A DNA stretch of 56,022 nucleotides from a virus (Duplodnaviria; Heunggongvirae; Uroviricota; Caudoviricetes), in IMG/VR virus record IMGVR_UViG_2534681672_000003, positions 1-56,022 of that record, one strand, 5' to 3'. The notes beneath the pieces are model-generated. The model was not told where the DNA came from, did not search any database, and was given only the letters and a program-made list of their open reading frames with translations. Position 1 is the stretch's first letter, and each line of letters begins with the position of its first letter. A program made the position numbers and the translations under genes. Shown piece after piece: positions 17,353-40,223 of the stretch.

Positions 17353-18141
17353 TTACGCCAGTTGTACGGACACGAACTCATCAGGGTCAGCCAGCAGCAT
17401 CAGCGGTGCTGACTGAATCATGGTGAACTCACGCGCCGGATCGCCGGTGGTCACCCAGTTTTTCGGGTAGCGGGCAGAGGCGTTAATGCCTTCGCGCTGT
17501 GCGTCCGCATCCTGAATGCAGCCATAGGTGCGCAGACCGCGTGCCTGAGTGTTCCCCAGCACCATCGTGTTGTCCGGCAGGAAGTTCTTTTTGACGCCGT
17601 TTTCCACGTACTGTCCGGAATACACGACGATGGCCACATCGCCATACATTCCCTTATAGGACACCGCTTTGCCCAGGTCTTTTACCGCTGTCTCCAGCTC
17701 GGAATGAGAGCCGCGACGGGTATCCAGCTTCTCCCTGACGGCTTTGAAAGAACGGAACAGCGCCCAGCCTTTCGGATCAAACACGATGATATTCACCACA
17801 CCGCTGGCGTTCAGCGCGTAGGCTTCGATATCGTCTGTCGGGTCATACGTGGACTTGTCACGCTTGCTCCACTCCGTGCCGCCGGACTGCGTGATGTTAT
17901 TCGCCTCACTGCGGCCCATATCCACCTCAACCGGATCGAAGGCTTCACCGGTCATGGTGTATTTGCCCTTAAGCACGGCAGAAACTGCCTGCATCTCTTC
18001 GACCTGAGCAATGGCCAGCTCTTCGTCACGCATGTTCTGCATGATGATGCGACGGCGGCGGTAAGTCGGGTCCGCCAGATTCTGCGGATCTTCATCCGGC
18101 AGGCGACGCAGGGTCATCTGCGGATTCACCTCATGCTTCGG
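17353..18141 (-). pseudogene. E: major capsid protein E, 3' fragment (codons from ...PKHEVNPQMTLRRLPDED to the stop)
   Basis: Lambda E C-terminal two-thirds; upstream reading frame hits a stop immediately past 18141, where unrelated AT-rich sequence begins. Confidence 0.9.
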
Positions 18142-18143
18142 CT
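18134..18143. repeat. left copy of 10-bp direct repeat TGCTTCGGCT (att core or target duplication)
   Basis: Identical 10-mer at 29567-29576; both copies lie in E codons K-P-K. Confidence 0.75.
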
Positions 18144-18220
18144 ACATGAGTCAAATATGAAAGGATGTGAATGATTTGATTACGTTTTAGCTATAGAATT
18201 GAAATGGAAAATCCTTGAAT

Positions 18221-18240
18221 GCAATACAACGTGCAATACA
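18221..18240. promoter_or_regulatory. candidate integrase arm-type site GCAATACAA-CGT-GCAATACA (left arm)
   Basis: Same motif in the same orientation at 29419-29438 near the other junction. Confidence 0.5.
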
Positions 18241-18277
18241 TGGATGAAAACCATCACTCATTTAACAAGAGGAATCT

Positions 18278-19183
18278 ATGCGCTCACCCAACAGAATGCA
18301 TGAACGCTCAACATTTTATAAGTATATGTCGTTGAATACCGCGAAGATTGTTCTTGATTCATGCAGCCTTAGATGGAGTTCTCCGGTCCTATTTAATGAC
18401 CCTTTTGATGTTCCAAGAGAAGTTATGCCTGGTATTAACGAAATTAATATTGGCAAAGCTTTAGCCCGCAAGTTAATAGCGGAGTTGATTACCCCCAGAG
18501 AAGACATACAAAATTTAAACCCTAGAATTAGAACAATGCTAAGTGATTTCCAAAAGTCATTTCCTTTAGGCATACCCGCAGGATTAATTGAAAGATTTCA
18601 AGAAATGGTAAACATTCCACCAGTTGGGATTGGCGCTCCTGCGGCAATACAAGAAATGAAAGATGTCTGGCGAGGAATGCTTAATAACAGAAGGATTTTG
18701 TGTTTATCTGAGAGCCCTATAATCACTCCTATGTGGAATCACTATGCCGATAAATATAAAGGTATAGTTATCGAATTTGATTGTGTAGACTTTCTGGATA
18801 GCGCTTGGTTAATAGCCAAACCTATGAAATACACAGATGAAATGCCTCTAACTCACACTGCTGAAGGGATGGCCGAGTTGCTTTTCATGCCAGACAATAA
18901 GTCAATTGAATATATCAATAATGAGATAATATTCATAAAAACAGAAGAATGGGCATATGAAAGAGAGTGGAGAATTTCAACCTACGCTAGGCCAAATAGC
19001 ACTGGTCAATATAGCGACTTAAAATTTCACCCTTTTGAGTTAAAATCTGTAATACTTGGTCCTCTTTTTGATGCCAGCGAGTTCGATGAAGTCGCATCAC
19101 TAGTTAAGATGTATCCAAGAGCGAAATTATTTAAAAGTTCATTTGGGAACGACAGAAAAATATCCATAGTACCACTACCTTAA
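18278..19183 (+). CDS. DUF2971 family protein (AT-rich cargo; candidate anti-phage function)
   Basis: N-terminal YKYMSLNTAKIVLDSCSLRWSSPVLFNDPFD matches the DUF2971 signature as recalled; AAGAGG RBS; low GC. Confidence 0.65.
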   Translation: MRSPNRMHERSTFYKYMSLNTAKIVLDSCSLRWSSPVLFNDPFDVPREVMPGINEINIGKALARKLIAELITPREDIQNLNPRIRTMLSDFQKSFPLGIPAGLIERFQEMVNIPPVGIGAPAAIQEMKDVWRGMLNNRRILCLSESPIITPMWNHYADKYKGIVIEFDCVDFLDSAWLIAKPMKYTDEMPLTHTAEGMAELLFMPDNKSIEYINNEIIFIKTEEWAYEREWRISTYARPNSTGQYSDLKFHPFELKSVILGPLFDASEFDEVASLVKMYPRAKLFKSSFGNDRKISIVPLP

Positions 19184-19223
19184 AAGGTCAAATGCTTTTG
19201 ACAAATAAAATCTATCGCCAGTT

Positions 19224-19240
19224 TTACTGGCGACTTTTAA
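19224..19240. terminator. bidirectional hairpin GCCAGT-TTT-ACTGGC between convergent genes
   Basis: Inverted repeat between the DUF2971 stop and the nu1-like stop. Confidence 0.45.
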
Positions 19241-19289
19241 GCAACAAAGAACCACCTAAGCACTCTTCCTACCTATGGTTTCATTTGTT

Positions 19290-19841
19290 TTAACTTCGCT
19301 GATTATCCTTGATATACCTTTCAGCCATATCTGGAATGTTATCTGAGATCTGGTAAGCTCGAATAAATGCTTTACTGACCTCCATCTTAATGAAGTCCTG
19401 ATACCGTTTTCCCATGCCAGGAAACTGTCGACAGATCGCAAGTGGAAGACTATCAATGATTGCTCCAACTTCCCCAGTTAATTTCGACAAGGCATAAGTC
19501 GCAAATGCAGTGTCAATTACCTCACCTGTTTCGCTGGCATTCTTCAGTTCCTGTGCGTCGGCCTGCGCACGCGTAAGTCGATGGCGTTCATACTCAATAG
19601 TCCCTGGCAGGAGATCTGCCTCGCTGGCCTGCCGCAGTTCTTCAACCTCCCGGCGCAGCTTTTCGTTCTCAATTTCAGCATCCCTTTCGGCATACCATTT
19701 TATGACGGCGGCAGAGTCATAAAGCACCTCATTACCCTTGCCACCGCCTCGCAGAACGGGCATTCCCTGCTCCTGCTAGTTCTGAATGGTACGGATACTC
19801 GCACCGAAAATGTCAGCCAGCTGCTTTTTGTTGGCTTCCAT
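19290..19841 (-). pseudogene. nu1-like small terminase subunit paralogue with in-frame TAG at codon 22 (possible restart at Met27)
   Basis: First two-thirds nearly identical at DNA level to helper nu1 (35283-35828) except TGG to TAG at 19776-19778; C-terminal third diverged. Confidence 0.7.
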
Positions 19842-19859
19842 TGTTCATTCCACGGACAA

Positions 19860-20060
19860 AACCAGAGAAAGGAAACGACAGAGGCCAAAAAGCCTGTTTT
19901 TAGCACCTGTCGTTTCCTTTCTTTTTAGGGGGTGTTTTTAATAAAAACATTAAGTTACGGCGAAGAAGAACGGAAACGCCTTAAACAGGAAAATTTTCAC
20001 AAATAGCGAAAAACTGCGCGCCTGACGCCCCGTAGCCTGTCAGATCGCCGGAAAGGACCC
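19860..20060. other. element cos site (cosB-like R-site sequences plus variant cosN at about 20019-20030)
   Basis: Aligns to helper cos at 35838-36030; flanks conserved, 12-nt overhang positions differ. Confidence 0.65.
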
Positions 20061-20086
20061 GCCAGCCAGAGCGGGCCCTAATTTCA

Positions 20087-20470
20087 TCAACCAATCAGCT
20101 TATAGCGACCATCCCGTGCATTGCGGCGTACACGCTCAATCTTGAGGCATAGCGCCGCATCTGGCTTTTTTGGGACAGGTACGCGGCAATATTCAGAAGC
20201 GCGAGGAATATTATTTATCCAGTCGATCACTTCACTTAAATACCAGGCCTTACGCCCTTCCGTAACCTGCACACGCTCCGGGAACTCTCCACTAGCCTCA
20301 AGGTTTAGCAGTGTACGACGACTCAGGGTTGTAATTTCCATCACCTGATTCATATCAACAAGGCGCTCGCTTAAACACATTTTGTCAGCGATAGCTTTTA
20401 ATTCCTCTACAGCTGGATTCGGGTACATCATTTCGGCAATTGGCTTAAGGTCATTGTAATCATTCTGCAT
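20087..20470 (-). CDS. AlpA/Xis-type HTH DNA-binding protein
   Basis: Motif TTLSRRTLLNLEASGEFPERVQVTEGRKAWYLSEVIDWI; AGGGGG RBS; last gene of the capsid operon, ending about 57 bp from cosN. Confidence 0.6.
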   Translation of the reverse strand: MQNDYNDLKPIAEMMYPNPAVEELKAIADKMCLSERLVDMNQVMEITTLSRRTLLNLEASGEFPERVQVTEGRKAWYLSEVIDWINNIPRASEYCRVPVPKKPDAALCLKIERVRRNARDGRYKLIG

Positions 20471-20481
20471 TGTATCCCCCT

Positions 20482-20823
20482 TTACACACGAGCCAGCGGC
20501 TGAACAGAAATACCTGAGCCAACAAACGCTGCAACCTTTACTGACAGTTCTTTAACAGACTCAGGCCAGTTCAGAGCATCAACATTTAAGACACCTGTCT
20601 TATAGACCTGAGCCTGTGTTTTTTTCGCGGTGTCGATTTGTACAGCGGAAACATAAACCGCTTTACCTACGCTCGAACCATCCCATACCACCAGTGCACC
20701 TGTTGCATCTTCCTGCATCAGTGGCGTAAATGCAGGAATTACCCCTTTATTAGCTGAAAATATCCCCAGCGTAGTCACCAGTGCTTCAGTGCCAGCCATG
20801 AGTTCAGTGTAATGAGTAGCCAT
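20482..20823 (-). CDS. head decoration protein, lambda D-like
   Basis: Alignable by eye to helper D (TPLM, WDG, YK-G, WPE, AF-G-IS shared); AGGGGGAG RBS. Confidence 0.7.
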   Translation of the reverse strand: MATHYTELMAGTEALVTTLGIFSANKGVIPAFTPLMQEDATGALVVWDGSSVGKAVYVSAVQIDTAKKTQAQVYKTGVLNVDALNWPESVKELSVKVAAFVGSGISVQPLARV

Positions 20824-20832
20824 TGCTCCCCC

Positions 20833-21873
20833 TTAGCCAATGCGAACGGTAACAAAACGATTGATGCGGGCCGGTATTGGCTGTGGTGCTGAATGTGTCT
20901 GCACATATTCAATAGCCGGATCACCAGGCACAATATAGTTTTTCGGTGCAAGTTCGGCTTTAGTCAGCCCCATTCGGATTAGCTCCGGATCCTGAATACC
21001 GCCATAGGCGACAATCCCCTGAAGAGCCGTATTGCCAAGCACCATCAAATCAGGATCAAGGAAATGTTTTTCTGTTCCGTCCTCGTCGGTATAACGCCCG
21101 CTGTAAACAACAATCGCAACATCGCCCATATACCCTTTAAAACTCACCGAATCACCAAGGTCTTTAAGGGCCGTTTCCAGTTCGGAATTAGAACCACGAC
21201 GGGTATCCAAAGCCTCTTTTATCGCTCTGAATGAACGGTATTTCTTCCATACATTACCACCCATAATGATGATATTAGTGACGCCCTCACTAAATTCTGC
21301 GTAGCTCTCAATATCATCATTTGGATCAAAAGTTTCTTTATCCTTACCTGACCACTCAGTACCGCCAGACTGAGTGATGATATTTTGTGGTTTTATATTC
21401 CAGTCCAGCTCATAACGTTCAATACCATCGCCCTCAATGATATTTTTCCCCGTTGTGATAGCCTGAACAGCAAGCCATTCAATACGTGCACGAATAGCTT
21501 TAGCCTGATTTACAATCGCCTGTTTAACTTTAATATTACGCGCCCCAAAAGCATTGTATTGCTCAGGTGACACACCAGCAGGGCGCACAGCTAACTTATT
21601 TGGATCAATGCTGCTTTTCGGCTTCATATAACCTGGACGAATTGTTTTTGATTCGTATCCCTCATCTCGTGAAACTTTACTGCCCACCATAGGAGAGCAA
21701 AACGCCGCGATCGGGATATTTGGATCGTCGATCGTATCAAGAATAATGTCTCTCGATTCAAACATTACCGAGCGAGTGAAAAACAAACTGGTAAACAACG
21801 CATTTAATTTTTTTTGTACATCTACAGCATTAACCACCTGTACAAGCTGAGTAGGCGAATATAAATCAACCAT
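20833..21873 (-). CDS. major capsid protein, lambda E-like (HK97 fold)
   Basis: 346 aa, alignable over the full length to helper E (ITQSGGTEWS, ALDTRRGSNSELETA, DVAIVVYSG shared); start trimmed to the ATG after AAGAGG. Confidence 0.8.
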   Translation of the reverse strand: MVDLYSPTQLVQVVNAVDVQKKLNALFTSLFFTRSVMFESRDIILDTIDDPNIPIAAFCSPMVGSKVSRDEGYESKTIRPGYMKPKSSIDPNKLAVRPAGVSPEQYNAFGARNIKVKQAIVNQAKAIRARIEWLAVQAITTGKNIIEGDGIERYELDWNIKPQNIITQSGGTEWSGKDKETFDPNDDIESYAEFSEGVTNIIIMGGNVWKKYRSFRAIKEALDTRRGSNSELETALKDLGDSVSFKGYMGDVAIVVYSGRYTDEDGTEKHFLDPDLMVLGNTALQGIVAYGGIQDPELIRMGLTKAELAPKNYIVPGDPAIEYVQTHSAPQPIPARINRFVTVRIG

Positions 21874-22074
21874 ACGCATCCTCTTTGCATTCATTAAAAA
21901 TAATTGTGGATATATGCTATCACCGATATTTGTCATGCGAACACATGCAACCGAGTGCAATGTTGTATAAAGTTTTGGGGTGACAACTTCAGTGCGGACA
22001 ATTAGTGTTAATATCTTCACTCCCTTTGGTCGGGATTTATGTAGCATGCAGGAAAATTTATTTTTTCCGGCCTT

Positions 22075-22792
22075 TTTGTGCACAGAAAACCCCCAGCTAG
22101 GCTGGGGGTTCCGGAAAGCTTTCAGCTTTGAGCCAGTTATTAAAACCCCTTTTGATTTGTTAAAACACTTTGCGGTCTGGCAACTGCAAGTGTCAAACAA
22201 GAAATCAAAAGGGGGTCCCAATGGGGAACGAAAAGAGCTTAGCGCACACCCGATGGAACTGTAAATATCACATAGTTTTTGCGCCAAAATACCGAAGACA
22301 GGTGTTCTACAGAGAGAAGCGTAGAGCAATAGGCAGTATTTTGAGAAAGCTGTGTGAGTGGAAAAGCGTACGGATTCTGGAAGCTGAATGCTGTGCAGAT
22401 CATATCCATATGCTTGTGGAGATCCCGCCCAAAATGAGCGTATCCGGGTTTATGGGATATCTGAAAGGGAAAAGCAGTCTGATGCTTTACGAGCAGTTTG
22501 GTGATTTGAAATTCAAATACAGGAACAGGGAGTTCTGGTGCAGAGGGTACTACGTCGATACAGTGGGTAAGAACACGGCGAAGATACAGGATTACATAAA
22601 GCACCAGCTTGAAGAGGATAAAATGGGAGAGCAGTTATCGATTCCCTATCCGGGCAGCCCGTTTACGGGCCGTAAGTAACGAAGTTGGATGCAAATGTCA
22701 GATCGTGTGCGCCTGTTAGGGCGCGGCTGGTAAGAGAGCCTTATAGGCGCATTTGAAAAACCTCCGGCTATGCCGGAGGATATTTATTTTAT
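22075..22792 (+). mobile_element. IS200 insertion sequence
   Basis: IS200-type TnpA flanked by terminal hairpins (about 22087-22110 and 22771-22789); boundaries approximate. Confidence 0.8.
22221..22679 (+). CDS. tnpA: IS200 transposase TnpA (Y1/HUH)
   Basis: MGNEKSLAHTRWNCKYHIVFAPKYRRQVFY... matches IS200 TnpA as recalled; trimmed to the ATG at 22221. Confidence 0.92.
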   Translation: MGNEKSLAHTRWNCKYHIVFAPKYRRQVFYREKRRAIGSILRKLCEWKSVRILEAECCADHIHMLVEIPPKMSVSGFMGYLKGKSSLMLYEQFGDLKFKYRNREFWCRGYYVDTVGKNTAKIQDYIKHQLEEDKMGEQLSIPYPGSPFTGRK

Positions 22793-22801
22793 TGGCAATA
22801 T

Positions 22802-23251
22802 TTAAAACGGGATATCATCTCCCCATTGCTCATTATCTCCCACTGGTGGCTGGCTTCCTTGCTGATCTGCCTGTTGTTTTGCTCTGTTCAGTGCGTCAGT
22901 AGCCTGCCCCTGTTGGCCTTTATTGCCGCCCGGTCGCACCGATCGCGCACTGATTACGCTGTCTGCGATAACCTGCCAGCCCTGCCGCGTTTCGCCGTTC
23001 TGTCCAGTCCACTGGCTCATCTGCATGTTACCCGCCACGCTCAGGAGTTCGCCTTTGTGATGCTTTGCCAGCGCGTCGGCTTGTCTGCCAAACGCCAGGA
23101 CAGATAACCACATCGTCGCCTGACCGTCATCCGACTGACTGCAGGGCAGTGATACCGCCATACGCGCCAACGTCATGGGGGTGCCCTTGCTGGTCTGTTT
23201 TGTCTGCGGGTCGTCCACCGACCGCCCGTAAACTGATATTTGCGCCGTCAT
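22802..23251 (-). CDS. SSB-like protein with C-terminal DDIPF tip
   Basis: Ends ...NEQWGDDIPF (SSB acidic-tip motif); glycine/glutamine-rich linker; AT-skewed neighbourhood. Confidence 0.5.
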   Translation of the reverse strand: MTAQISVYGRSVDDPQTKQTSKGTPMTLARMAVSLPCSQSDDGQATMWLSVLAFGRQADALAKHHKGELLSVAGNMQMSQWTGQNGETRQGWQVIADSVISARSVRPGGNKGQQGQATDALNRAKQQADQQGSQPPVGDNEQWGDDIPF

Positions 23252-23493
23252 GCGGCCTGCTCTCCGGACTTAATATTGATTGTTGTCACTTCCTCCGCTT
23301 CAGCAATCTCCCGTTCGGTCAGAGTGGCAAAGTTTGCAGCCGCCGTTGTCATGAATGCGCTAATCAGTTCGGGATGTGCTTTCGCGTATCCTTCCCCGGC
23401 GTTGCGGTCGATGATTTTTATCGACACCCTTAACCAGTGTTCCGTCAAATCAAGGGCGTGCGATTGTGATTTTTTTGTGTGCTTCGCTGTCAT
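23248..23493 (-). CDS. hypothetical protein
   Basis: 81-aa ORF, stop overlapping the SSB-like start. Confidence 0.35.
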   Translation of the reverse strand: MTAKHTKKSQSHALDLTEHWLRVSIKIIDRNAGEGYAKAHPELISAFMTTAAANFATLTEREIAEAEEVTTINIKSGEQAA

Positions 23494-23538
23494 AGGCTTT
23501 ATCTCACAGCAGTAAATTAAAATTTTTGCGTTTTAACC

Positions 23539-23770
23539 CTTCACCTGTTCACCTTTTGATATTTTCTCTTTTAATTCATAATGTTAATGGGTGAACAGTT
23601 TCACAAAAACTATTCACCAACTGTTCACCACTGTTCACCCTTGAAGCTCAATAAACAATCAAAAAGGTGAACAGTGAATAGTTTGGTGAACAGTTCATAA
23701 ATAACTGTTCACCCTATAATATACTGATATAAAAGATATTTATGACAGGGTGAACAGTGGTGAACAGTTA
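23539..23770. repeat. replication-origin iterons, about 9 copies of TGTTCACC / GGTGAACAG in both orientations
   Basis: Octamer recalled as the P4 alpha binding site at ori/crr; lies directly downstream of the primase-helicase gene. Confidence 0.7.
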
Positions 23771-23780
23771 TTCCATAAGT

Positions 23781-25601
23781 TTAATTTTTGCTATCGTCAT
23801 TAGTGACCGATACACATGATGGCATCCAGTCTTCTGATTCCTCCGTCAGGGTCACGTTTGAACGCAAACCGTGCTTCGTTTTCCGTTTCATATACTCCCT
23901 GCCATATTCCGCCATTGCCCCCGGCATATCTTTACCGAAGCGCGTCAGTGTTACAGGTTTACCAAACCCATGTGCCCTCATATAAGCCAGATAGGCATGA
24001 TAGAGATACCTGCGTGGGCTGAATGGCACAATTTCAGCATTACCCACTAACAGGCCATCACACATTACCGATGCCATGAGATAACCGCAGAAGTCCACCA
24101 GCGAATCCCCCTCTCGCTTTATCGCCAGTGCTTCTTCAGATTTCTGCTGCTCATATAACAGGCGTCTGGCTTCGTCCTGATCAGCAAACCTTGTAAGCAG
24201 ATGACGAATCACTACCGCCAGCTCACCTTCTATTTTTTCCGCCAGCATCGAATCGCGTTCGTTCTCCGGTACAACTTCCGAAAAATTGAATATCACCCGA
24301 CGACGTGAGATCCCCCCGCTGCGGTCACTGAATGACATGGCGTTATTGTTAACCGCCAGCACTACTGCCGGAATACGCGTTGAATAGGGGGCTTTGTGTT
24401 TCGGGTCAATTGCCACCTTGTCACCGCCTGTAATGGCCTTAATCCCTGCCCCATCACCAGCGTAGCGGGTCATATCCGGCATGATAATCAGCGAAAAGCC
24501 AACCACTAACGCACGTTCCCTTGCATCTTCCAGCGCCTTCATGCTTGCTGATACTGTATTAGCCTTACCCGCCAGCATGGTGCAAATCTCCGCCATCACA
24601 CTTTTACCACTTCCCCCCGGCCCTGTTACCTCAATGAATAACTGCCAGTCGTACCGGTTCGCCAGCACCATGAATAATGCCGCCAGTACGCGATCTGCCT
24701 TGCGGTCATTCTCAGCCACCGAACGGCGCAACCACTTCCAGAAATTCGGCGCATGTGTTGCCAGCGTTTCCCCCTCTGCTGGTGGGCTGAAAGGTAATTC
24801 ACTGGCAATTAACAACCAGTCGTTTTTGTTATGCTCCCGAAAGTTACCAGTTCTGGTATCAAATACCCCGTTACTGAATCCAATCAGGTTACGGGCTGTA
24901 TTCCCCATTACAGGCAAACTTAACTTCATGGTATCTACCGCCGATTTAATAGCGTTCTGCGAATAGCTGATCTCCGCATCAATGAAAATCTGCGCCATAG
25001 CACGCTGTAACTCTTTATCCTGAACCGGCTCCCATACAACGCCGTTGTAATGATGAACGGTGTCAGAGTCGGCATTGATTGCCAGTTCGCCGCCGTAATG
25101 TGCAAGGAGAACTTCACCGCGCTGGCTGGCCCCCATCTGATTCAACGCCAAAGATGAAGCACGCTCGTCATTTTTGCGCTCAGCCTTCTTCACTGGCAGT
25201 TCAATCACCAGACTTTCCCCATGCTCCGCTTCAGCTTTTAGGCCGACAAGGCGCGGAGTCCAGTCTTCAGGCTCTCGATCAACAAAGCTACGGTAACAAC
25301 GTGCTTCCTTTACGCCTGCAATAGCAAGTAATGTCGCAACCTTCGTCAGACTTTTCTCTGCAATCTTTCCGGCACGATAAACACGCACATAATGACGGCC
25401 TTCATCGATAATTTGCATATCATCCAGGTTTTCCAGTTGTTCCGTACCCAGAATGACTGGTGGTGTATCATCTGCTGCAATATGCTTACCTGCCCATTCA
25501 TTCCATTCTTTTGCATGGCTCCAGGCATCACTGCCAGCAAAAATGATGACTTCCGTCATTTTGTCGCGCGGTTGGTATTTTAAGTTCGGAGCACGTTTCA
25601 T
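23781..25601 (-). CDS. replication initiation primase-helicase (P4 alpha-like, P-loop NTPase)
   Basis: Walker A VTGPGGSGKS; 606 aa; GGAGG RBS; adjacent to the iteron origin. Confidence 0.65.
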   Translation of the reverse strand: MKRAPNLKYQPRDKMTEVIIFAGSDAWSHAKEWNEWAGKHIAADDTPPVILGTEQLENLDDMQIIDEGRHYVRVYRAGKIAEKSLTKVATLLAIAGVKEARCYRSFVDREPEDWTPRLVGLKAEAEHGESLVIELPVKKAERKNDERASSLALNQMGASQRGEVLLAHYGGELAINADSDTVHHYNGVVWEPVQDKELQRAMAQIFIDAEISYSQNAIKSAVDTMKLSLPVMGNTARNLIGFSNGVFDTRTGNFREHNKNDWLLIASELPFSPPAEGETLATHAPNFWKWLRRSVAENDRKADRVLAALFMVLANRYDWQLFIEVTGPGGSGKSVMAEICTMLAGKANTVSASMKALEDARERALVVGFSLIIMPDMTRYAGDGAGIKAITGGDKVAIDPKHKAPYSTRIPAVVLAVNNNAMSFSDRSGGISRRRVIFNFSEVVPENERDSMLAEKIEGELAVVIRHLLTRFADQDEARRLLYEQQKSEEALAIKREGDSLVDFCGYLMASVMCDGLLVGNAEIVPFSPRRYLYHAYLAYMRAHGFGKPVTLTRFGKDMPGAMAEYGREYMKRKTKHGLRSNVTLTEESEDWMPSCVSVTNDDSKN

Positions 25602-25885
25602 TTGTTACCTCCGGCAACTAACATTGCCCGAATTTTACGGATATAGCCTGCGGCACGCCTCTGATTATCTGTCTTGCAATTTTTTACCAGAATGAAATCT
25701 CTTTCGAACTGCTGACGCGGCATAACACATTCAAAATCATAACCATCACGCAAATAAGAGACACGACGATCATCAACCGAAATAATCTTTACCCGATAGC
25801 CATAGCTGTCTTTGAAAATATCCCCAAGGCTGATTTTTGAATGAGTTTGACCGCTGGCAATAAAGCCAGAAAATTTATTTTTCAT
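25598..25885 (-). CDS. hypothetical protein (replication operon)
   Basis: 95-aa ORF with ATGA overlap onto the primase start. Confidence 0.4.
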   Translation of the reverse strand: MKNKFSGFIASGQTHSKISLGDIFKDSYGYRVKIISVDDRRVSYLRDGYDFECVMPRQQFERDFILVKNCKTDNQRRAAGYIRKIRAMLVAGGNK

Positions 25886-25888
25886 TTT

Positions 25889-26113
25889 TTATTCTCCGGT
25901 ATAGCTCTGGTCGTGTATTTTTATAGCTTCATCCAGCTCTTTGATGACAGGATCAAGTAACGTAATTAACGCTCCAGCTAAATTAGCATCCCGTTCATCG
26001 TGTTCCGCATTTGTTGTCCCATCAAGCCAGGTTGATAAGATTTCTCGCATATTTTTGCCACAAACGAGCGCGTTTTCAGCATGTGTCAGCACTTTAAAAT
26101 AAAGATCATTCAT
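25889..26113 (-). CDS. hypothetical protein
   Basis: 74-aa ORF in the same operon. Confidence 0.35.
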   Translation of the reverse strand: MNDLYFKVLTHAENALVCGKNMREILSTWLDGTTNAEHDERDANLAGALITLLDPVIKELDEAIKIHDQSYTGE

Positions 26114-26471
26114 GGCACACCTCCTGACGAATACGGGCGGCGAATATCATCACGTAGCCAGTTGGGAATTGCTGGCGGGCTTCCTGTTCGCTGGCGGCCT
26201 CGATGTGTATTACGCGTGGTTGTGCGGTGCTCAGGGCGATAAAACGCCAGATGAAATTGTTTTCGCATTTCTGAATAAACAGCGTGTTTTCTTCACGCCC
26301 TTTCCAGAAAGCCGCAGTATAGCCCATCTCCTTAACCATCTTGCGGGCATCAACCAGCGTGTCAGCGGCAACATGTACCGTAGTTGCTCCATCTGCCATG
26401 CGGTCGTGGTGTAGTGCCAGAAAGGTGTATATAAATTTAGGGTGAGTTTGGGTATGCTGTGTTCCAGCCAT
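26106..26471 (-). CDS. hypothetical protein, first gene of the leftward operon
   Basis: 121 aa from the ATG after a GAGG RBS; the longer ORF-track version runs antisense through the neighbouring gene and was trimmed. Confidence 0.45.
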   Translation of the reverse strand: MAGTQHTQTHPKFIYTFLALHHDRMADGATTVHVAADTLVDARKMVKEMGYTAAFWKGREENTLFIQKCENNFIWRFIALSTAQPRVIHIEAASEQEARQQFPTGYVMIFAARIRQEVCHE

Positions 26472-26554
26472 AATCGTTACCTCGTTTAACGGTTTGGTTA
26501 GAAGCCCGGTTAGTGTTCGCGCACTGCCGGGTTTCGTCGTTTTTATGAATCGAT

Positions 26555-26670
26555 CATTGTGAGATACATAGCGACCATGATGTGAGATATACATTATAAT
26601 GTGGTGATATACATTGCAAGTGTTTTTATATCTCACTTTTGTGTATAGTGATATACACATAACAAATTGG
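26555..26670. promoter_or_regulatory. divergent promoter/operator region with repeated GTGAGATA(T)ACAT and GTGATATACA motifs
   Basis: At least five direct and inverted copies between the divergent operons. Confidence 0.6.
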
Positions 26671-26679
26671 TGATTAACT

Positions 26680-26982
26680 ATGTCTGTATACAAAAATGCA
26701 AAATCGCAAATGACAACGATCAGGGTTCCCCACGATGTTATGGAGGGCATGGAATCCGTAAAACTGGACGGCGAAAGCAACGCCGGATTCATAGTAACCG
26801 CCATGCGCGGTGAGATCGCCCGCCGCCAGGCAGAAGGAAGCGGAGAAAATCCCCTCGTGTCTTCACTGGATGCCTTAGCTAAGGTCGAACAAATCGGCAT
26901 CAAGGCAGCGGAGGAAATCGGGCAACTCGTAGCCGTCGCTCGTGAAGAACTCCAGCGGCGTAAAGCCAAAGAATCTGAATAA
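26680..26982 (+). CDS. putative ribbon-helix-helix (CopG/Arc-like) regulator
   Basis: TTIRVPHDVMEGMESVKL...NAGFIVTAMRGEI fits a strand-helix-helix pattern; sits beside the operator repeats. Confidence 0.4.
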   Translation: MSVYKNAKSQMTTIRVPHDVMEGMESVKLDGESNAGFIVTAMRGEIARRQAEGSGENPLVSSLDALAKVEQIGIKAAEEIGQLVAVAREELQRRKAKESE

Positions 26983-27332
26983 TTACTATCAGCGCCGTGA
27001 TGTGAGTAACTACGGCGCATTGCTATGTAAATACTGGCAATAAACAGAAAAGGTAGTTCTACTCCGAATAATTTTATCTGACACTACTCCTGAACTAACA
27101 TGCGCTTATCTTACAGGATATAAATATAGATCCATAAAATCACGATTAAATAAAGCCGCTCCAAACATAAACCACACCCAACGCTTAACAAGATAGCAAC
27201 AAACAGATAAATAACTTGCAGAAATATTTATCGCAAGGATTATCATTATTAATTACAAATCACTTTACCAAGTCATTCCCCTCTCTTATCATAAAGAGAA
27301 AGTAATAAATAAGTTAAGGGAGTTAGAATACT

Positions 27333-27869
27333 ATGAATCTAAAAAAAATAGCCACAAACATAAAAAACAAGATAATAGAAACATTCAATAAACTTATATT
27401 AGAGGCATCTAAAACCCCCACACAAGATGAAATTAAAATACTTGAGAGAAGAAGTAAAAAGTTTAATTACTCCTTTTTCTCATACGCAGTCACAGGAGCC
27501 ATAATGGTTTTTTGCTCTCAACCATTAATAAAATACGCAAACCCAATGCTTATTTTATTGAGTGGTCTGTTACTGTCTATCATCATTATCCTTCTCAGAA
27601 TGATTTATATTTCACAAGCGAATGCATCATGGACAACCAAAAAACGTTCACATGTACTAGTTCATTTTCTTTCTGCATGTTTCATAGCGTCAACATTGAC
27701 GTTGTTATATCAGGCTTACGATAATAACATCACACACAAATTGTACTGTAAAAATATACAACAACTTATTGAAAAAAGGATAGAAACAGAAAAAAATATC
27801 AGCATATTCAGTGGGATGCAATGCACCCCGGCATATGATTACTCTTTATTTGGATTTAATCTCTTATAA
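27333..27869 (+). CDS. AT-rich membrane protein (cargo, unknown function)
   Basis: 178 aa, hydrophobic segments, very low GC, preceded by about 300 bp of AT-rich DNA. Confidence 0.5.
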   Translation: MNLKKIATNIKNKIIETFNKLILEASKTPTQDEIKILERRSKKFNYSFFSYAVTGAIMVFCSQPLIKYANPMLILLSGLLLSIIIILLRMIYISQANASWTTKKRSHVLVHFLSACFIASTLTLLYQAYDNNITHKLYCKNIQQLIEKRIETEKNISIFSGMQCTPAYDYSLFGFNLL

Positions 27870-27938
27870 AGAATGTTATTACTGATTTGAGTGCAAATTC
27901 TCAAATCAGTAATTCATAATATTTTATTCTGAGATAAT

Positions 27939-28166
27939 TTAAACTACCCACTCACCTCGAATCCATGCCTGCACTTCTGAAAGACGATATGCAACAGCAG
28001 TGGAGCCAATCTTGATCCGCTTAGGAAATTTCCCTTCCTTCTCCAGCTTCCAGCGTGTGCTGTTCGCAAGAGTGGTTAGCTCCCGACATTCTTTCTCACG
28101 GATCATACGATCGATGTTAGGAATGTACTCCAAACCCTTTTTATCAACAATCGCCATTTTTTTCAT
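27939..28166 (-). CDS. alpA: AlpA-family transcriptional regulator/excisionase
   Basis: 75 aa with AlpA-type HTH (LTTLANSTRWKLEKEGKFPKRIKIG); directly downstream of int. Confidence 0.75.
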   Translation of the reverse strand: MKKMAIVDKKGLEYIPNIDRMIREKECRELTTLANSTRWKLEKEGKFPKRIKIGSTAVAYRLSEVQAWIRGEWVV

Positions 28167-28167
28167 G

Positions 28168-29403
28168 TTAACCAGCCTTTTGTTTGAGGATTATCACTTT
28201 TGAATCAGCACCTGCGATGCTATTGAGATATGTAGTCCAGAGTTCCAGAGCATCCAGTTTTTTAGCCATAAACTTACTCCGGTTGTAAACACCTGCCACG
28301 CCAGGTAGCGCATGGCCTAACAGTTGTTCTACTACATAAAATTCAACACCGAGATCACTTAGATGAGTAGATAGCGTTCTTCTAAGGTCGTGTAGTGACC
28401 ATTGTTTTTCATGGCCCAAACGTTTACCGATTTTCCCCCCAATCTTGCTTACGCTTTCTCTAATTCGCAGACTTCCCAGCACATAACCAGTATGTTTTGT
28501 CTCTTCGTGAACATCCGTTACCCACTGTCGTAGAATTTCAGGTACTGGTCTGACGATTTCAACACCAGTTTTTGAGTGATCTTTTGGTACCGTCCAAACC
28601 CAACTTTCGAGATCCCATTCGCTCCATTCAGATAATCGGGCTTCACTCATTCGACATCCAAATACTGTACAAAGCACAAACATTTTTCGCGTGTATTCAG
28701 ACATTAGTTTTAAATCAGGCTCGACAAAAATTGCCTTCCAGAGCTGGCCCAGTTCGGCTTCATCCAGAACCCGATCCCGCTTACCTGCAATCTGCCCCAC
28801 ATCACTCATGCGCAAATCCTTTAAAGCATCACATGTCGCGTACTGGCGTACCCGACAAAAACGAAGAGCTAATTTAGTGTCAGAAAAAACATACGCCGCC
28901 ATAACTGGTGCATTACGTTTAATTCGGTCAAAACAGTCCAGCCATTCATATAGGTGAGTGTCATTTACAGGCAAATGACCGATATAGGGAAAGATATGCT
29001 TTCGAAATCTGCCAAGCGTTACAGCATGAGTTTTACGACGCACCTTACAGTAATTTTCATACCAGTAATTTAGTGCATCCTCCACTGTGACCGGCTTTAA
29101 GCGTTCTTCAGCCTGAATCTTAATCTGGATACGCGGATCACGTTTGTCAGCCAACCAACCACGGCACTCGTCGCGCTTTTCCCTTGCCTGTTTGAGTGAC
29201 ATATCAGGATATTTACCCAACGTTAGCCAGACCGGAGCAGCCCGGCCACCTGCTAACCTGTAGAAGAAAACAAAGCTCACAGCCCCCTTGGTACTCACAC
29301 GAATAGAAAGCCCCTTTCCATCAGCAATGGTGATCTGCTTTTCTCTGGGTTTCCCCAGATATCCTTTAAGCGCTTTGTCGCTCAGTTTGTTCTCGCCAGC
29401 CAT
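28168..29403 (-). CDS. int: tyrosine integrase, P4/CP4-57 family with N-terminal arm-binding domain
   Basis: N-terminus LSDKALKGYLGKPREKQITIADGKGLSIRVSTKG; C-terminal HDLRRT...LLGH...Y catalytic motifs; trimmed to the ATG at 29403. Confidence 0.85.
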   Translation of the reverse strand: MAGENKLSDKALKGYLGKPREKQITIADGKGLSIRVSTKGAVSFVFFYRLAGGRAAPVWLTLGKYPDMSLKQAREKRDECRGWLADKRDPRIQIKIQAEERLKPVTVEDALNYWYENYCKVRRKTHAVTLGRFRKHIFPYIGHLPVNDTHLYEWLDCFDRIKRNAPVMAAYVFSDTKLALRFCRVRQYATCDALKDLRMSDVGQIAGKRDRVLDEAELGQLWKAIFVEPDLKLMSEYTRKMFVLCTVFGCRMSEARLSEWSEWDLESWVWTVPKDHSKTGVEIVRPVPEILRQWVTDVHEETKHTGYVLGSLRIRESVSKIGGKIGKRLGHEKQWSLHDLRRTLSTHLSDLGVEFYVVEQLLGHALPGVAGVYNRSKFMAKKLDALELWTTYLNSIAGADSKVIILKQKAG

Positions 29404-29418
29404 TTTTAGCCCCAAAAA

Positions 29419-29438
29419 GCAATACAAGCTGCAATACA
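29419..29438. promoter_or_regulatory. candidate integrase arm-type site GCAATACAA-GCT-GCAATACA (right arm)
   Basis: Matches the left-arm motif at 18221-18240. Confidence 0.5.
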
Positions 29439-29566
29439 GAGATGATTGCAACACACAGATAACGAGGAAAATTCAGTGAAAGCGCCAGATAAACTTATTC
29501 TTTATTATCAAAAGATTAAGTGTAAAAACCAGCAACTACACGAAAGCCTCAGAAAGCCATGCTAAG

Positions 29567-29576
29567 TGCTTCGGCT
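29567..29576. repeat. right copy of 10-bp direct repeat TGCTTCGGCT
   Basis: Identical to 18134-18143. Confidence 0.75.
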
Positions 29577-29811
29577 TGACATATCCCGGCGTAAATTCAG
29601 AGGTGGAGCCGCCACGGGAACGGATAACCTCACCGGAAACAATCGGCGAAACGTACAGCGCCATGTTTACAAGTCCCGGAATTTGTGAGAGATAGACTTT
29701 CTCCGTAGTGAAGGGATAGCTCTCACGGAAAAAGAGACGCAGAAACAGCGGATCAAACTTAAATTTCTGCTCATTTGCCGCCAGCAGCTGGGCGGTTGTG
29801 TACATCGACAT
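29567..29811 (-). pseudogene. E: major capsid protein E, 5' fragment (MSMYTTAQLL...GYVKPKH)
   Basis: Lambda E N-terminus; frame leaves E sequence right after KPKH at the junction. Confidence 0.9.
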
Positions 29812-30208: not shown

Positions 30209-31581
30209 TTACACTGGTGTGTTCAGCAAATCGTTAACGGCATCAGATGCCGGGTTACCTGCCGCCAGCGGTGTCGGTGCCCCCTGCATCAGACGATCCA
30301 GCGCAGTGTCACTGCGCGCCTGTGCACTCTGTGGTGCTGCGGCCAGAATGCGGCGGGCCGTTTCCACGGTCATACCGGGGGTTTCTGCCAGCACGCGGGC
30401 CTGTTCTTCGCGTCCGTGAGCCTCCTCACAATTGAGGATCCCCATAATGCGGCTGTTTTCTGCCGCAACCGCTGCGGTGATCTGTGCGTTCACGTCCGGC
30501 TGCGCCGCGCTGGCGTTCTCGCCCTCTGTCGCTGACACCACGTCAGTAACGTCAGCCTGCAAAGCAGTGGCTGAAACAGTTGTTGATTGAGTCTCTTTGG
30601 TCATTCGCCCTCCTGAGAGACGGGATTTACGTGCATCCAGTGCCTCACGCATAACGGTGATCGCATCGGTGCTGTTGACAAGTTCATCAGCCAGTCCGGC
30701 ATCAATGGCCTCCTGACCGCTGTACACTGCAGCCTCGGTATCCAGCACAGCCTGCACGGACAGGCCGGTATATGCCGACACCTTCTGCGCAAACATCCGG
30801 CGGGTTGCATCCATCCGGGACTGCAGTGTCTCCCGGACGTCATCCGGAAGATGGCTGTAGGGGTTGCCATCCACCTTATGGCTGCCGCTGTAAATCAGCG
30901 TGATTTCCACGCCCTGTTTCTCCAGCGCAGCACCGTTTGCCATCCACCTTATGGCTGCCGCTGTAAATCAGCGTGATTTCCACGCCCTGTTTCTCCAGCG
31001 CAGCACCGTAATTACTGTGAGCCATCATGACGCCGATGGAGCCTGTCCGGGCGGTCTGCGTGACCAGACGCCGGGAGGCGGCACTGGCAAGCAACTGACC
31101 TGCACTGCAGTTCATGTCGTTGGCAAGCGTCCATACCGGTTTTATGTCACGCACACGGGCGATGATGTCAGCGCAGTCAAATGCCCCCGCCACCATCCCG
31201 CCGGGCGTGTCCATATCGAGCAGAATGCCGTCCACCATCGGATCGCTGGCAGCCTGTTGCAGACGGGCGATAATGCCGTTGTAACCGGTCATCCCCGAGT
31301 ACGGCTGCAGCGCCCGCGTCCGGCTGACCAGCGTGCCGGACACCGGCAGCACGGCGATGCCGTTCATGACCTGATAACTGCGGGCCTGTCGTGGTCCGTC
31401 ATCATCACCGGATAATGCCAGCGTCGCGAGTGCCTCCTGGGCAGTCAGGCTGTCGCCGGACACCGCATCCGTCAGGCGGCTGATCCCAAGCTGGCCTGCA
31501 AGCGCACAAAAGAAAACCCGCGCATAGGCGGGTTCAAGCATCAGCGGCTCATTAAAGGCCATACTGGCAATATGCGGGAGA

Positions 31582-31602
<21 letters not shown>
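30209..31602 (-). pseudogene. C: head protease/scaffold gene C (with nested Nu3), frameshifted by a 73-bp tandem duplication
   Basis: Lambda C sequence is split over two ORF-track frames (30876-31715 and 30209-30943) with AALEKQGVEITLIYSGSHKVDG encoded twice; GTG start after a GGAGGAG RBS. Confidence 0.85.
30864..31009. repeat. perfect 73-bp tandem duplication (2 copies) inside gene C
   Basis: 30864-30936 is repeated at 30937-31009; 73 is not a multiple of 3. Confidence 0.85.
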
Positions 31603-35282
<3,680 letters not shown>

Positions 35283-35308
<26 letters not shown>

Positions 35309-35828
35309 TCAGCAACCCCGGTATCAGTTCATCCAGCGCGGCTGCTTTGTTCATGGCTTTGATGATATCCCGTTTCAGGAAATCAACATGTCGGTTTTCC
35401 AGTTCCGGAAAACGCCGCTGCACCGACAGGGGGATCCCGTCGAGAATACTGGCAATTTCACCTGCGATCCGCGACAACACGAAAGTACAGAATGCGGTTT
35501 CCACCACTTCAGCGGAGTCTCTGGCATTCTTCAGTTCCTGTGCGTCGGCCTGCGCACGCGTAAGTCGATGGCGTTCGTACTCAATAGTCCCTGGCTGGAG
35601 ATCTGCCTCGCTGGACTGCCGCAGTTCTTCAACCTCCCGGCGCAGCTTTTCGTTCTCAATTTCAGCATCCCTTTCGGCATACCATTTTATAACGGCGGCA
35701 GAGTCATAAAGCACCTCATTACCCTTGCCACCGCCTCGCAGAACGGGCATTCCCTGTTCCTGCCAGTTCTGAATGGTACGGATACTCGCACCGAAAATGT
35801 CAGCCAGCTGCTTTTTGTTGACTTCCAT
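35283..35828 (-). CDS. nu1: terminase small subunit Nu1
   Basis: 181 aa, MEVNKKQLADIFGASIRTIQNWQEQGMPVLRGG... matches lambda Nu1. Confidence 0.96.
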
Positions 35829-35837
35829 TGTTCATTC

Positions 35838-36030
35838 CACGGCCAAAAACAGAGAAAGGAAACGACAAAGGCCCAAAAGTTCGTTTTCAGCACCTGTCGT
35901 TTCCTTTCTTTTCAGGGGGTATTTTAAATAAAAACATTAAGTTACGACGAAGAAGAACGGAAACGCCTTAAACCGGAAAATTTTCATAAATAGCGAAAAC
36001 CCGCGAGGTCGCCGCCCCGTAACCTGTCGG
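35838..36030. other. prophage cos site (cosB R sites plus cosN; 12-nt cohesive end at 36006-36017)
   Basis: Plus strand AGGTCGCCGCCC is the reverse complement of lambda GGGCGGCGACCT; flanks match the lambda genome ends as recalled. Confidence 0.9.
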
Positions 36031-36496
36031 ATCGCCGGAAAGGACCCGTTGGCCGTTCTGGTCTACTTCGTAATGGGATTTAATAGCTGAACGACAAAAG
36101 TCTTGCGACCACAGTCACACAGACCTGAATACACGTCCTGTTTCTTCCACCCCCGCACAGGACTGGCGAGCATGAGGGACACCCCCGCGAACCATAAACG
36201 CGGTAAAAACCCGGTGTGCATCGTTTTTGATTATTCCCGCACACTCACGCAGAAGGAATTCCCCGTCGGGCTACGGTCATGGTTAATGCGGGAATACGGC
36301 GACGATACAGCGCAGCTAAAAGGGTAATGGACAGATAGAGCGGTTTATTTCATTCCACAGGATTCTGAGTGCCCCCCCCCTCCTCCAATAGGCTGAGCAT
36401 CCACCTATATAGTTTTAATTTTCATCAATCCATTTAACTATCGTTTAATTGTTGTCACATAGGATTCTGCCGTTTTTAACAATGCAGGATAATAAG

Positions 36497-38180: not shown

Positions 38181-38921
38181 TTACATCATGTCTTTTTCTA
38201 AAAAAAGTCTTGATGAATATTGATGGGGAGGAACACCAAAATATCTTCTGAAAACACTTACAAAATATGACGTGTTTTCATAACCGCATATCTCAGCAAC
38301 TTTTCCAACAGAATATAAATTGTAGCTTAATAACCTTTCCGCCATCACCATTCGCTCTTCAAGAATTAACTTACTAAATGATAAGCCTTCGTGCTTTAAT
38401 TTTCTTTTTAACAGACTTTCACTCAGATACAGTCTTGAAGATATATCACAAAGTCTCCATGCTGCAGATATATCCGTGTGAATAATAGCCTTAACTTTAC
38501 TTCCTAAACTATTAAGACATCCAAATAAAAAACTTTGCACTATTTTCTCTGAAGATAAGATAGCAAGACATGCAAGTGATATTTGATTTCTAACAAAATC
38601 CACAGTTCTGCCATCACAATTCAAGCATGCAATCAAGTTCTTTAACAATGAAAAATCTTCACATTCCACCATCAAGTATGCCGGATAAAACCTTCTTACA
38701 GAAAAAGGTGAGAGTGTGTTGCTTTTAAAGAAATCATTAACTGTTTTCTCTTCAACATCTACGATCATTACATGATCTATATTTGATGAAAAAAAATCTT
38801 TTAAATTGTAATCAATGAGAACAGCACTTCCTTTTTTAAACAAAATATCTTCTTTACCAATTCGGACATCAAACGAGTTCAACACCAAAATGATAGAACA
38901 TATGTATGGCATATTATCCAC
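38181..38921 (-). CDS. AraC-family transcriptional regulator (AT-rich moron between Q and S)
   Basis: C-terminal AraC HTH (VGKVAEICGYENTSYFVSVFRRYFGVPPHQY); low GC. Confidence 0.8.
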   Translation of the reverse strand: MDNMPYICSIILVLNSFDVRIGKEDILFKKGSAVLIDYNLKDFFSSNIDHVMIVDVEEKTVNDFFKSNTLSPFSVRRFYPAYLMVECEDFSLLKNLIACLNCDGRTVDFVRNQISLACLAILSSEKIVQSFLFGCLNSLGSKVKAIIHTDISAAWRLCDISSRLYLSESLLKRKLKHEGLSFSKLILEERMVMAERLLSYNLYSVGKVAEICGYENTSYFVSVFRRYFGVPPHQYSSRLFLEKDMM

Positions 38922-39263
38922 CTGATATCATTGGGGTTACACCAGGTAAGTATAGGTGGAAAATCAATATTCGCCAGTTCAACAATAAGGAAAATCTCAT
39001 TGCATCACAAGTATAAAATTATGTATTTAACTCACAAAGACAAATTATTAAACCAATCTGTTATATTATATATAGCTGCGTGGAATCATAATATTATATA
39101 TTTTGACTGGCATGTTTACCAACTTTAAGTTGCATCTCAATGGTTTCTTCAGCGTAAACAGAGTTTTTATACAAACTGACACTCTGGGTATCATAGTGTA
39201 GTTTTTACGATTGTAAATATCTTGCATGCAGGAACTCATCCTTTTGGATGATATCGCATACAA

Positions 39264-40223
39264 TTAATTTACCATCAGTCTTAGAGCCAGTTCGTCCGGA
39301 TAGGGAGCGAAGTAATTCTGTGTAAGCAAGTAATCATTAGGATACTCACCCAGATAATGCTTCAGCAGAGTCAACGGCGCAAGAAGAGGTAATGTGCCAG
39401 AACGATAGTTAAGTATAACCTCGCTCAACTCTTTACGCTGGCGTGTACTTAAGTAGTTACTAAAATACCCCTGTATATGCATCAGCACATTCGTGTGATT
39501 TTTACGTGATGCAGGTTTTCTGAGAATCGCCATCAGCTTATCACGATACACCTCAAAGTATGATTCAAGGTCCGCCCACTCGTGTATTGCAGCCACAAAT
39601 GGTCCCATATCTTTATAGCCTGCCTGACTATGCGCCAACAACTGAAGCTTATAACGACTATGAAAAGCTAATAACTCTCTTCTTGATAATTTCTCCTTGT
39701 AAAGGTGATTGAGCTCATGCAAAGCAAAAACTCTTTCAACAAAATTCTCACGAAGCACTGGATCATGTAATCGCCCATCCTCTTCAACCGGTAGCCAGGA
39801 AAACTTTTCCATCAAAGTGCTCGTAAATAGTCCCACTCCATCTTTACGACCTCGATTACCATTTTCATCATAGACACGCACGCGCTCCATGCCACAGCTG
39901 GGAGATTTAGCACAAACCACAAACCCCGATACATCCTTTAATTTGTCCATATAAGAACGACTAAACTCTGTCATTCTCTCTGTCACATCCTCATTCTGGT
40001 CGTGGCTGAAACACATCCGTATATTTCCTTGCGTCGAGCGCACAAGACGTAGAGCAGGACGCGGAACTGGCAGCCCTATAGCCATTTCCGGACATACTGG
40101 TCTGAATGTTACCCATTCCACTAATTTGTCCATTAAAAAGTCAGCTCTTTTGTGACCACCATCAAAACGAACAGCAGAGCCGGCCAAACAACCGCTGATT
40201 CCAATCACAGGTTTTTTTATCAT
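39264..40223 (-). CDS. DUF523/DUF1722-type protein (moron)
   Basis: N-terminal VIGISGCLAGSAVRFDGGHK resembles the DUF523 signature as recalled. Confidence 0.5.
   Translation of the reverse strand: MIKKPVIGISGCLAGSAVRFDGGHKRADFLMDKLVEWVTFRPVCPEMAIGLPVPRPALRLVRSTQGNIRMCFSHDQNEDVTERMTEFSRSYMDKLKDVSGFVVCAKSPSCGMERVRVYDENGNRGRKDGVGLFTSTLMEKFSWLPVEEDGRLHDPVLRENFVERVFALHELNHLYKEKLSRRELLAFHSRYKLQLLAHSQAGYKDMGPFVAAIHEWADLESYFEVYRDKLMAILRKPASRKNHTNVLMHIQGYFSNYLSTRQRKELSEVILNYRSGTLPLLAPLTLLKHYLGEYPNDYLLTQNYFAPYPDELALRLMVN

Follow-up and report, generated by a model that had tools for sequence, protein, structure and literature searches.

The 56,022-bp stretch of DNA analysed here (the window; positions 1-56,022 of IMG/VR record IMGVR_UViG_2534681672_000003) contains a lambdoid prophage whose major capsid gene is occupied by a phage satellite, and within this satellite lies a complete copy of the insertion sequence (IS) IS200C. 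The copy is an intact, canonical IS200C, belonging to the IS200 group of the IS200/IS605 family with tnpA as its only gene, and it was inserted recently in one Escherichia coli lineage. We consider it highly probable that it entered the T-run of a terminator-like hairpin followed by T7, past the ssb gene of a helper-embedded phage-inducible chromosomal island (HE-PICI) of the 11capE type, and that its effect on the satellite capsid genes is conditional at most. A preliminary description of the region had reported a complete IS200-type TnpA with terminal hairpins, placed between the capsid operon and the replication module of an element and adding some 0.7 kb to it. These features were all recovered here, with a single intact tnpA, subterminal hairpins at both ends, a location between the satellite replication genes (primase and ssb) and capsid operon (E-like and D-like genes), and an added length of 0.71 kb, as was the start of the E-like gene at 21873 on the minus strand. 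The nature of the surrounding element had been left unrecognised; it is the HE-PICI.

Identity and anatomy of the insertion sequence

Over its full length (positions 1-711), the IS is 100% identical to IS200C in E. coli CFT073 and in at least 11 other records, and full-length IS200C copies were found in 2064 of 5426 E. coli genomes, IS200C occupying about 10,750 places in this set. A single family-matched open reading frame (ORF), tnpA, lies within it, with no tnpB. The translated protein was matched by Pfam Y1_Tnp (E=3.8e-38) and by the NCBIfam equivalog transpos_IS200 (E=1.9e-43; 147.7 bits, with a cutoff of 55), as well as by solved chains of the Sulfolobus, IS608 and ISDra2 TnpA proteins (2ec2, 2a6m, 2xm3). 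Direct reading of the translation located the HUH motif at H61-I-H63, and Y125 together with Q129. The protein is that of the copy in E. coli SCU-102, annotated as WP_000526135.1, and the IS is already known, as RefSeq annotates an IS200C family transposase at the same site in that genome.

No terminal inverted repeats were reported in an inverted-repeat scan of the IS, which has subterminal hairpins at both ends instead. The left-end hairpin stands 10 nt from the IS end, with a folding free energy (dG) of -23 to -25 kcal/mol, and the core of the right-end hairpin (dG -15.5) stands 9 nt from the opposite end. The 5' untranslated region (UTR) of tnpA was matched by Rfam family RF01405, STnc490, an IS200 5'UTR element, over the full model (1-124) and with 144.6 bits against a gathering score of 56 (E=1.5e-29). 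This match lies on the tnpA-sense (plus) strand, whereas in published work STnc490/art200 runs antisense to the tnpA 5'UTR; the Rfam model appears to have been built in the sense orientation of a near-palindromic region.

The features published for Salmonella IS200 (PMC4513863) were transferred to the window, with the terminator hairpin of nt 12-34 falling at 22088-22110, the stem-loop of nt 69-138 at 22146-22214, and the antisense RNA at 22141-22230. The role ascribed to the stem-loop at the tnpA Shine-Dalgarno sequence is taken from the same work. On the minus strand, this stem is followed by UUUU and would constitute the terminator of art200. Salmonella IS200, known for the polar insertion hisD984 and for the art200 and 5'tnpA RNAs, is 707 bp long compared with 711 bp here and represents a different IS200 subtype; its regulatory RNAs and terminator activity have been demonstrated, whereas those of the window copy are predicted. 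IS200C of E. coli CFT073, for its part, has the same 711-bp sequence with a single tnpA, the left-end terminator hairpin, the Shine-Dalgarno-sequestering stem with the STnc490/art200 region and the right-end hairpin, as well as the same absence of inverted repeats and of target duplication. The element itself is thus identical, and only the phage-satellite insertion site is particular to this lineage.

Empty site, distribution and target choice

A 4-kb query around the IS identified the flanking DNA in 191 complete E. coli genomes, which provided the comparison with IS-free copies that the preliminary description had proposed. In 190 of them, the satellite segment was 711-712 bp shorter and IS-free, the IS being present in SCU-102 only. 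The insertion is recent because it is confined to this one lineage, and its presence in one lineage of 191 implies, as far as the genome comparison goes, that the IS has been mobile in recent times. The empty site, as found in ET490, reads CCGGCC-TTTTTTT-ATTGGCAAT, and the occupied site of the window reads CCGGCC-TTTTT-(GTGCACAG...GGATATTTATT)-TT-ATTGGCAAT, which corresponds to an exact addition of 711 bp relative to ET490 without target-site duplication. The pairwise alignment computed with MAFFT misplaced the gap; the junctions were read by eye and checked against collapsed-repeat contigs and complete copies, which have the same IS ends elsewhere (...ATTTATT). The empty-site comparison alone leaves a junction ambiguity of 2 nt (TT), which was resolved because the left flanks of independent insertions (see below) invariably end in TT before GTGCACAG, and because right flanks vary directly after TTTATT. 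The IS, which had initially been placed at 22075-22792, was consequently refined to 22078-22788 by means of the IS-free alignment and the IS200C copies. Its right end lies 11 bp from the stop codon of ssb and its left end 204 bp upstream of the capsid ATG; the IS therefore adjoins ssb and does not stand directly upstream of the capsid gene, as had been stated.

The window and SCU-102 differ at four positions across 24.5 kb. Three of these lie in tnpA (22367, 22448 and 22562) and are synonymous third-codon differences, at all of which the window carries the allele of the CFT073 IS200C. This suggests gene conversion between copies or an assembly consensus effect.

In the IS-free copies, the hairpin GCCGGAAAA-tttatt-TTTTCCGGC is followed by C and T7 on the plus strand, with a dG of -14.1, and was scored as terminator-like on that strand by the terminator scan. 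The window retains this hairpin with C and T5 to the left of the IS, and the TT at 22789-22790 is the rest of the original T7. With A in place of C at 22050, the target stem is less stable, its dG shifting from -14.1 to -7.9. The A allele is common to the window and SCU-102, i.e. to the IS-bearing lineage only, and C was found in all 52 of 52 IS-free copies.

The flanks of 41 independent insertions with the exact IS200C left end (L003-L048), from Kluyvera, Citrobacter, Phytobacter, Entomohabitans and Kosakonia, were surveyed alongside 5000 control positions, with a hairpin being counted if it was perfect, had at least three G-C pairs and ended 2-9 nt before the insertion point. TT closes every one of the 41 left flanks, and a perfect hairpin with a T-rich tail was found in 37 of them, compared with 5% of the controls. 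Inspection of the four exceptions by eye revealed imperfect hairpins in three (L010, L019 and L044) and only short complementary CCGG(G) arms in the last (L016). A second E. coli site, in EC190759 (L052:5940-6000), has the IS in the T-run of a prophage lom terminator. The landing site of IS200C-type elements is the T-tract of a terminator-like hairpin oriented toward the IS left end; under this rule, insertion takes place a few nucleotides 3' of a GC hairpin, within a T-rich stretch of the tnpA-sense strand whose last two bases are TT. At the ssb-capsid junction, the only such motif lies on the strand antisense to the satellite genes, which is why tnpA points against them, and since the rule fixes both the position and the orientation of the insertion, a selective explanation is unneeded. 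The survey illustrates the landing of IS200C-type elements in terminator T-tracts and helps to annotate IS ends and to predict orientation.

The IS right end resembles the target in that it consists of a hairpin followed by ATATTTATT. We tentatively propose, as a possibility that falls short of our favoured account, that IS200C selects its targets by structure, i.e. that it would choose in single-stranded DNA a terminator-like GC hairpin and a T-rich stretch behind it with TT at its end, the whole mimicking its own right end. If true, this choice would account for the presence of the IS at a module boundary of the satellite in antisense orientation to the satellite genes, with the corollary that the satellite capsid operon would be expressible only by the Q-antiterminated polymerase of the helper while embedded. 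The published view, in contrast, sees in the terminators that precede IS200/IS605 elements a niche in which transposase expression is restricted, not a recognition signal, and a literature search for an explicit description of IS200/IS1541 target sites gave only a general paper on terminator enrichment. Copies of IS1541 and IS200 may lie close to terminators.

GC skew is negative on the plus strand over almost the whole window (1-56022), with tnpA on the C-rich strand; skew is an unreliable guide in prophages. Elements of the IS200/IS605 family transpose by a single-strand peel-and-paste mechanism that prefers the lagging-strand template. On this same unreliable basis of skew, the orientation of tnpA is opposite to that expected for entry via the chromosomal lagging-strand template.

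Possible consequences for the capsid operon and competing readings

Read in the direction from ssb to the capsid gene, the hairpin of the IS-free copies is preceded by A7 and followed by AUGCUAC, and as no U-run follows it, transcription could seemingly continue from ssb into the capsid gene. The minus strand of the IS carries three hairpins with U-runs in this direction, namely the right-end hairpin with UUUUUC (dG -15.5, scored as terminator-like), the long 5'UTR stem with UUUU (dG -34) and the left-end hairpin with UUUUCUGUG (dG -25). The left-end hairpin of IS200 is a published bidirectional rho-independent terminator (nt 12-34), and IS200 was first found as a polar insertion in hisD (PMC4513863). 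Because of the three structures in the sense direction, the published terminator and the hisD polarity, a polar effect of the IS on ordinary read-through from the replication genes is plausible. The polar block suggested in the preliminary description may thus hold for upstream read-through only; the conserved capsid leader is untouched.

In the course of events that we favour, IS200C would have transposed into the T-run of the hairpin with T7, 11 bp past the ssb stop codon, following which the three hairpins with U-runs between ssb and the capsid gene would terminate ordinary read-through from the integration and replication zones. The conserved 204-bp capsid leader would stay intact, and the Q-modified polymerase of the helper could bypass the terminators while the satellite is embedded. 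RNA polymerase modified by Q is resistant to terminators, as known from lambda biology, and the helper carries a Q antiterminator gene at 41096-41488 (Pfam, 2.5e-51). Helper late transcription has been hypothesised to run into the embedded satellite (PMC10111431), and Q-modified RNA polymerase could read through the IS as long as the satellite remains within the helper late operon. We infer that the effect of the IS on satellite capsid expression would be conditional at most; in a model PICI, the capsid genes are reportedly dispensable for transfer (PMC10111431). The insertion is probably incidental and neutral to mildly deleterious, rather than a regulatory adaptation.

The 204-bp spacer between the IS and the capsid ATG was aligned with four relatives and is conserved, also in a chromosomal PICI. 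It is part of a late-module block of 97.7% identity in common with the chromosomal PICI of PS10-3, which stops at the insertion site. A promoter or operator in the spacer would survive, since the IS leaves it untouched. A consensus scan for sigma-70 promoters found none in the 204-bp spacer of the window, and reading by eye provided a weak candidate on the minus strand (ATGACA-16-TATATC, 21936-21909), which lacks the invariant T at position 6 of the -10 element. In the IS-free copies, a sigma-70-like match of 9/12 positions (TTGCCA-16-AAAAAT) straddles the insertion point, with 1.6 such matches expected by chance per scanned region, and its -35 element is not conserved in PS10-3. As regards the earlier suggestion that the IS separates the capsid operon from its promoter, these scans are no evidence either way. 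Within the 204-bp leader, we found no direct repeats and only weak inverted repeats, no notable RNA structure (fold z=-0.83) and nothing at the Rfam gathering threshold; a conserved leader block, ACATTGCACTCGGTTGCATGT, occurs a single time in the window.

Among the competing readings, the one that deserves most attention, and which we regard as possible though less probable than our own, holds that the IS is silent for the satellite, with the capsid operon being driven by its own, possibly activator-dependent, spacer promoter and/or by Q-antiterminated transcription from the helper, so that only the length changes. It accords with the conservation of the spacer, which moves with the capsid module in the block shared with PS10-3, with the weak candidate promoter and with the Q gene of the helper. 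However, the consensus scan returned no promoter in the spacer, the candidate is deficient in its -10 element, and the IS-free ssb-to-capsid hairpin without a U-run agrees with an operon transcribed by read-through, in which case the IS would interrupt it. A re-driving of the capsid operon by the IS, also raised in the preliminary description, would have the art200 promoter, the only leftward one known for IS200 in the literature, sending transcripts past the left end into the capsid gene, and we judge it very unlikely: although art200 is reportedly abundant (PMC4513863) and would point toward the capsid gene in this orientation, transcription from its start would meet two strong hairpins with U-runs, its own terminator and the left-end hairpin, before the IS left end, art200 was published as a discrete RNA of 90 nt, and the consensus scan found no outward promoter.

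It is also improbable, if slightly less so than re-driving, that the IS was selected to silence or uncouple the satellite late genes during domestication or decay of the composite, for example by relieving interference of the satellite capsid with the helper. The same satellite copy does have a nonsense codon in its small terminase gene (terS), and the helper head protease of the window a frameshifting 73-bp duplication, but these lesions look like independent decay, the IS occurs in one of 191 complete genomes with no sign of spread or recurrence, and its position and orientation are fully accounted for by the target rule. Hardly tenable, finally, is an immobile relic consisting of tnpA and hairpins without functional ends, a state that the preliminary description had named as one that would undo its proposal. 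The transposition frequency of IS200 is reportedly notoriously low (PMC4513863), yet many copies at other sites match the full 711 bp with 100% identity, tnpA is intact with its catalytic residues, both ends match those of the collapsed-repeat contigs, and the confinement of the insertion to one lineage makes it recent. The relic was rejected on the full-length identity to IS200C copies elsewhere.

Several points weigh against the insertion account that we prefer. Both the termination at the three structures and any promoter position for the capsid operon are predictions from sequence; if the match that straddles the insertion point were a real promoter, the IS would destroy it instead of only blocking read-through. 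The surveyed flanks come from genera other than Escherichia, and only two sites were inspected in E. coli. Moreover, the account does not cover the three synonymous differences that separate the window IS from its SCU-102 counterpart at this site. A concern over packaging size arising from the extra 0.7 kb was dropped, as packaging of the model E. coli PICI reportedly takes the form of phage-length concatemers (PMC10111431; PMC6092414).

The importance of the insertion is small, as it involves a textbook IS, a published satellite type and one lineage. The natural pair formed by the IS-bearing copy and the 190 IS-free copies is nevertheless suited to asking whether the satellite late genes are reached by transcripts reading through from the satellite early promoters or by helper late transcription.

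The satellite, its relatives and decay of the composite

The satellite is an already described 11capE-type HE-PICI (PMC10111431). It is delimited by a 10-bp att identity block, TGCTTCGGCT, at 18134-18143 and 29567-29576, and splits the helper capsid reading frame, fragments of which flank it at approximately 17353-18141 and 29566-29811 (RefSeq of SCU-102 and ET490). Including the IS, it measures 11.4 kb, within the 10-20 kb of elements of this kind. The minus-strand genes follow the order int, alpA, icd-like, DUF4222, D5-type primase, a small ORF, ssb, the IS, E-like, D-like, a second AlpA-family gene and Nu1-like terS. The int, alpA, replication and capsid-module genes are all co-oriented with the helper head and tail genes, and a tyrosine integrase is annotated beside the att site. 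Pfam assigned D5_N/Pox_D5 (primase), SSB, Phage_cap_E, HDPD, Phage_AlpA and Phage_Nu1 within the satellite. Accessory genes on the plus strand comprise DUF2971, a YlcI/YnfO-like gene and one hypothetical gene. The features of the IS and its surroundings are collected in Table 1.

Table 1. Coordinates of the satellite, the IS200C copy and the sequence features at the ssb-capsid junction.
Feature	Position	Strand	Basis or remarks
11capE-type helper-embedded PICI	18134..29576	-	in major capsid gene of lambdoid helper prophage
Satellite head decoration protein (lambda D-like)	20482..20823	-	Pfam and RefSeq
Satellite major capsid protein (lambda E-like)	20833..21873	-	Pfam Phage_cap_E, E=9.5e-42; RefSeq of SCU-102
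Capsid-upstream spacer, IS to capsid ATG, 204 bp	21874..22077	-	intact, conserved
Target site, left part	22048..22077	+	hairpin GC(A)GGAAAA-tttatt-TTTTCCGGC, then C and T5
IS200C insertion sequence	22078..22788	+	711 bp, GTGCACAG...ATTTATT; alignment with empty site and IS200C copies
Left-end perfect hairpin, AACCCCCAGC-tag-GCTGGGGGTT	22088..22110		TnpA-recognition/terminator hairpin; minus-strand tail UUUUCUGUG
IS200 tnpA 5'UTR region	22088..22211	+	Rfam RF01405 STnc490
art200 antisense small RNA, about 90 nt, toward capsid gene	22141..22230	-	putative
Long stem-loop sequestering tnpA Shine-Dalgarno sequence on plus strand	22146..22214		16-nt arms, 94% complementary; dG -37 (plus), -34 (minus)
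tnpA, Y1 HUH transposase, intact, 152 aa	22221..22679	+	Pfam, NCBIfam and structure matches
Inner right-end imperfect hairpin	22708..22751		inverted-repeat and folding scans
Right-end hairpin, core CCTCCGGC-tat-GCCGGAGG at 22761-22779	22756..22784		terminator-like on both strands; minus-strand tail UUUUUCAAAU
Satellite ssb, last gene of replication zone	22802..23251	-	Pfam and RefSeq

Among the closest known relatives, the HE-PICI Eco567.11capE (Tommasini, Mageeney & Williams 2023, PMC10111431) is also about 11 kb long and likewise occupies the lambda-E-like capsid gene of a lambdoid prophage, in the same orientation as that gene. The att identity block reported for it has 10 bp as well, the likeness being one of length, and int-alpA, a replication zone and a late zone that includes a capsid gene are common to both satellites. 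Unlike it, the window copy carries IS200C where the replication zone gives way to the late zone, and its terS has a nonsense codon. In the same study, ISs come up only as a nuisance in mapping and as BLAST hits that were uninformative. EcCICFT073, the model Gram-negative PICI (PMC6092414), is arranged in the same way, its replicon being followed by capsid (c1499-like) and head-decoration (c1500-like) genes, and shares the dependence on lambdoid, cos-type helpers; it is, however, chromosomal rather than helper-embedded, and no IS has been described at its ssb-capsid junction. The chromosomal PICI of PS10-3 has the same module of ssb, capsid, decoration, alpA and terS genes.

Gene content varies in the accessory slot that separates the late zone from the att site. 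This slot is occupied in the window by the DUF2971 gene (18278-19183, plus strand) and in ET490 by a pair of DUF262 and HEPN-domain genes, without terS (L001:9467-11183). The slot looks like a hotspot for defence or cargo genes.

Lesions were found in both partners of the composite. The Nu1-like terS of the satellite (19290-19841, minus strand) has an in-frame stop at codon 22 (IQN*QEQGMP) and is a RefSeq pseudogene in SCU-102. The N-terminal half of its product is presumably similar to lambda Nu1, with a divergent C-terminal half. Beside this gene, 531 bp (19531-20061) are 94% identical to the cos/Nu1 region of the helper at 35518-36048. In the helper, a perfect 73-bp tandem duplication (2.0 copies, 100% match; 30864-31009) lies within the S49 head protease gene and shifts its reading frame, giving rise to ORFs at 30209-30943 and 30876-31715; it is absent from the near-identical SCU-102, and the helper in the window genome may be head-defective. 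The lesions look like ordinary decay of a prophage-satellite composite, not like adaptation.

Between the Q and lysis genes of the helper, three apparent cargo genes were noted at 38181-40940, comprising an AraC-like regulator, an ORF of 319 aa and a lipocalin-like lipoprotein ORF on the plus strand. The AraC-like and lipocalin-like labels were assigned by eye; RefSeq covers part of the AraC-like gene and annotates that part only as 'helix-turn-helix domain-containing protein'.

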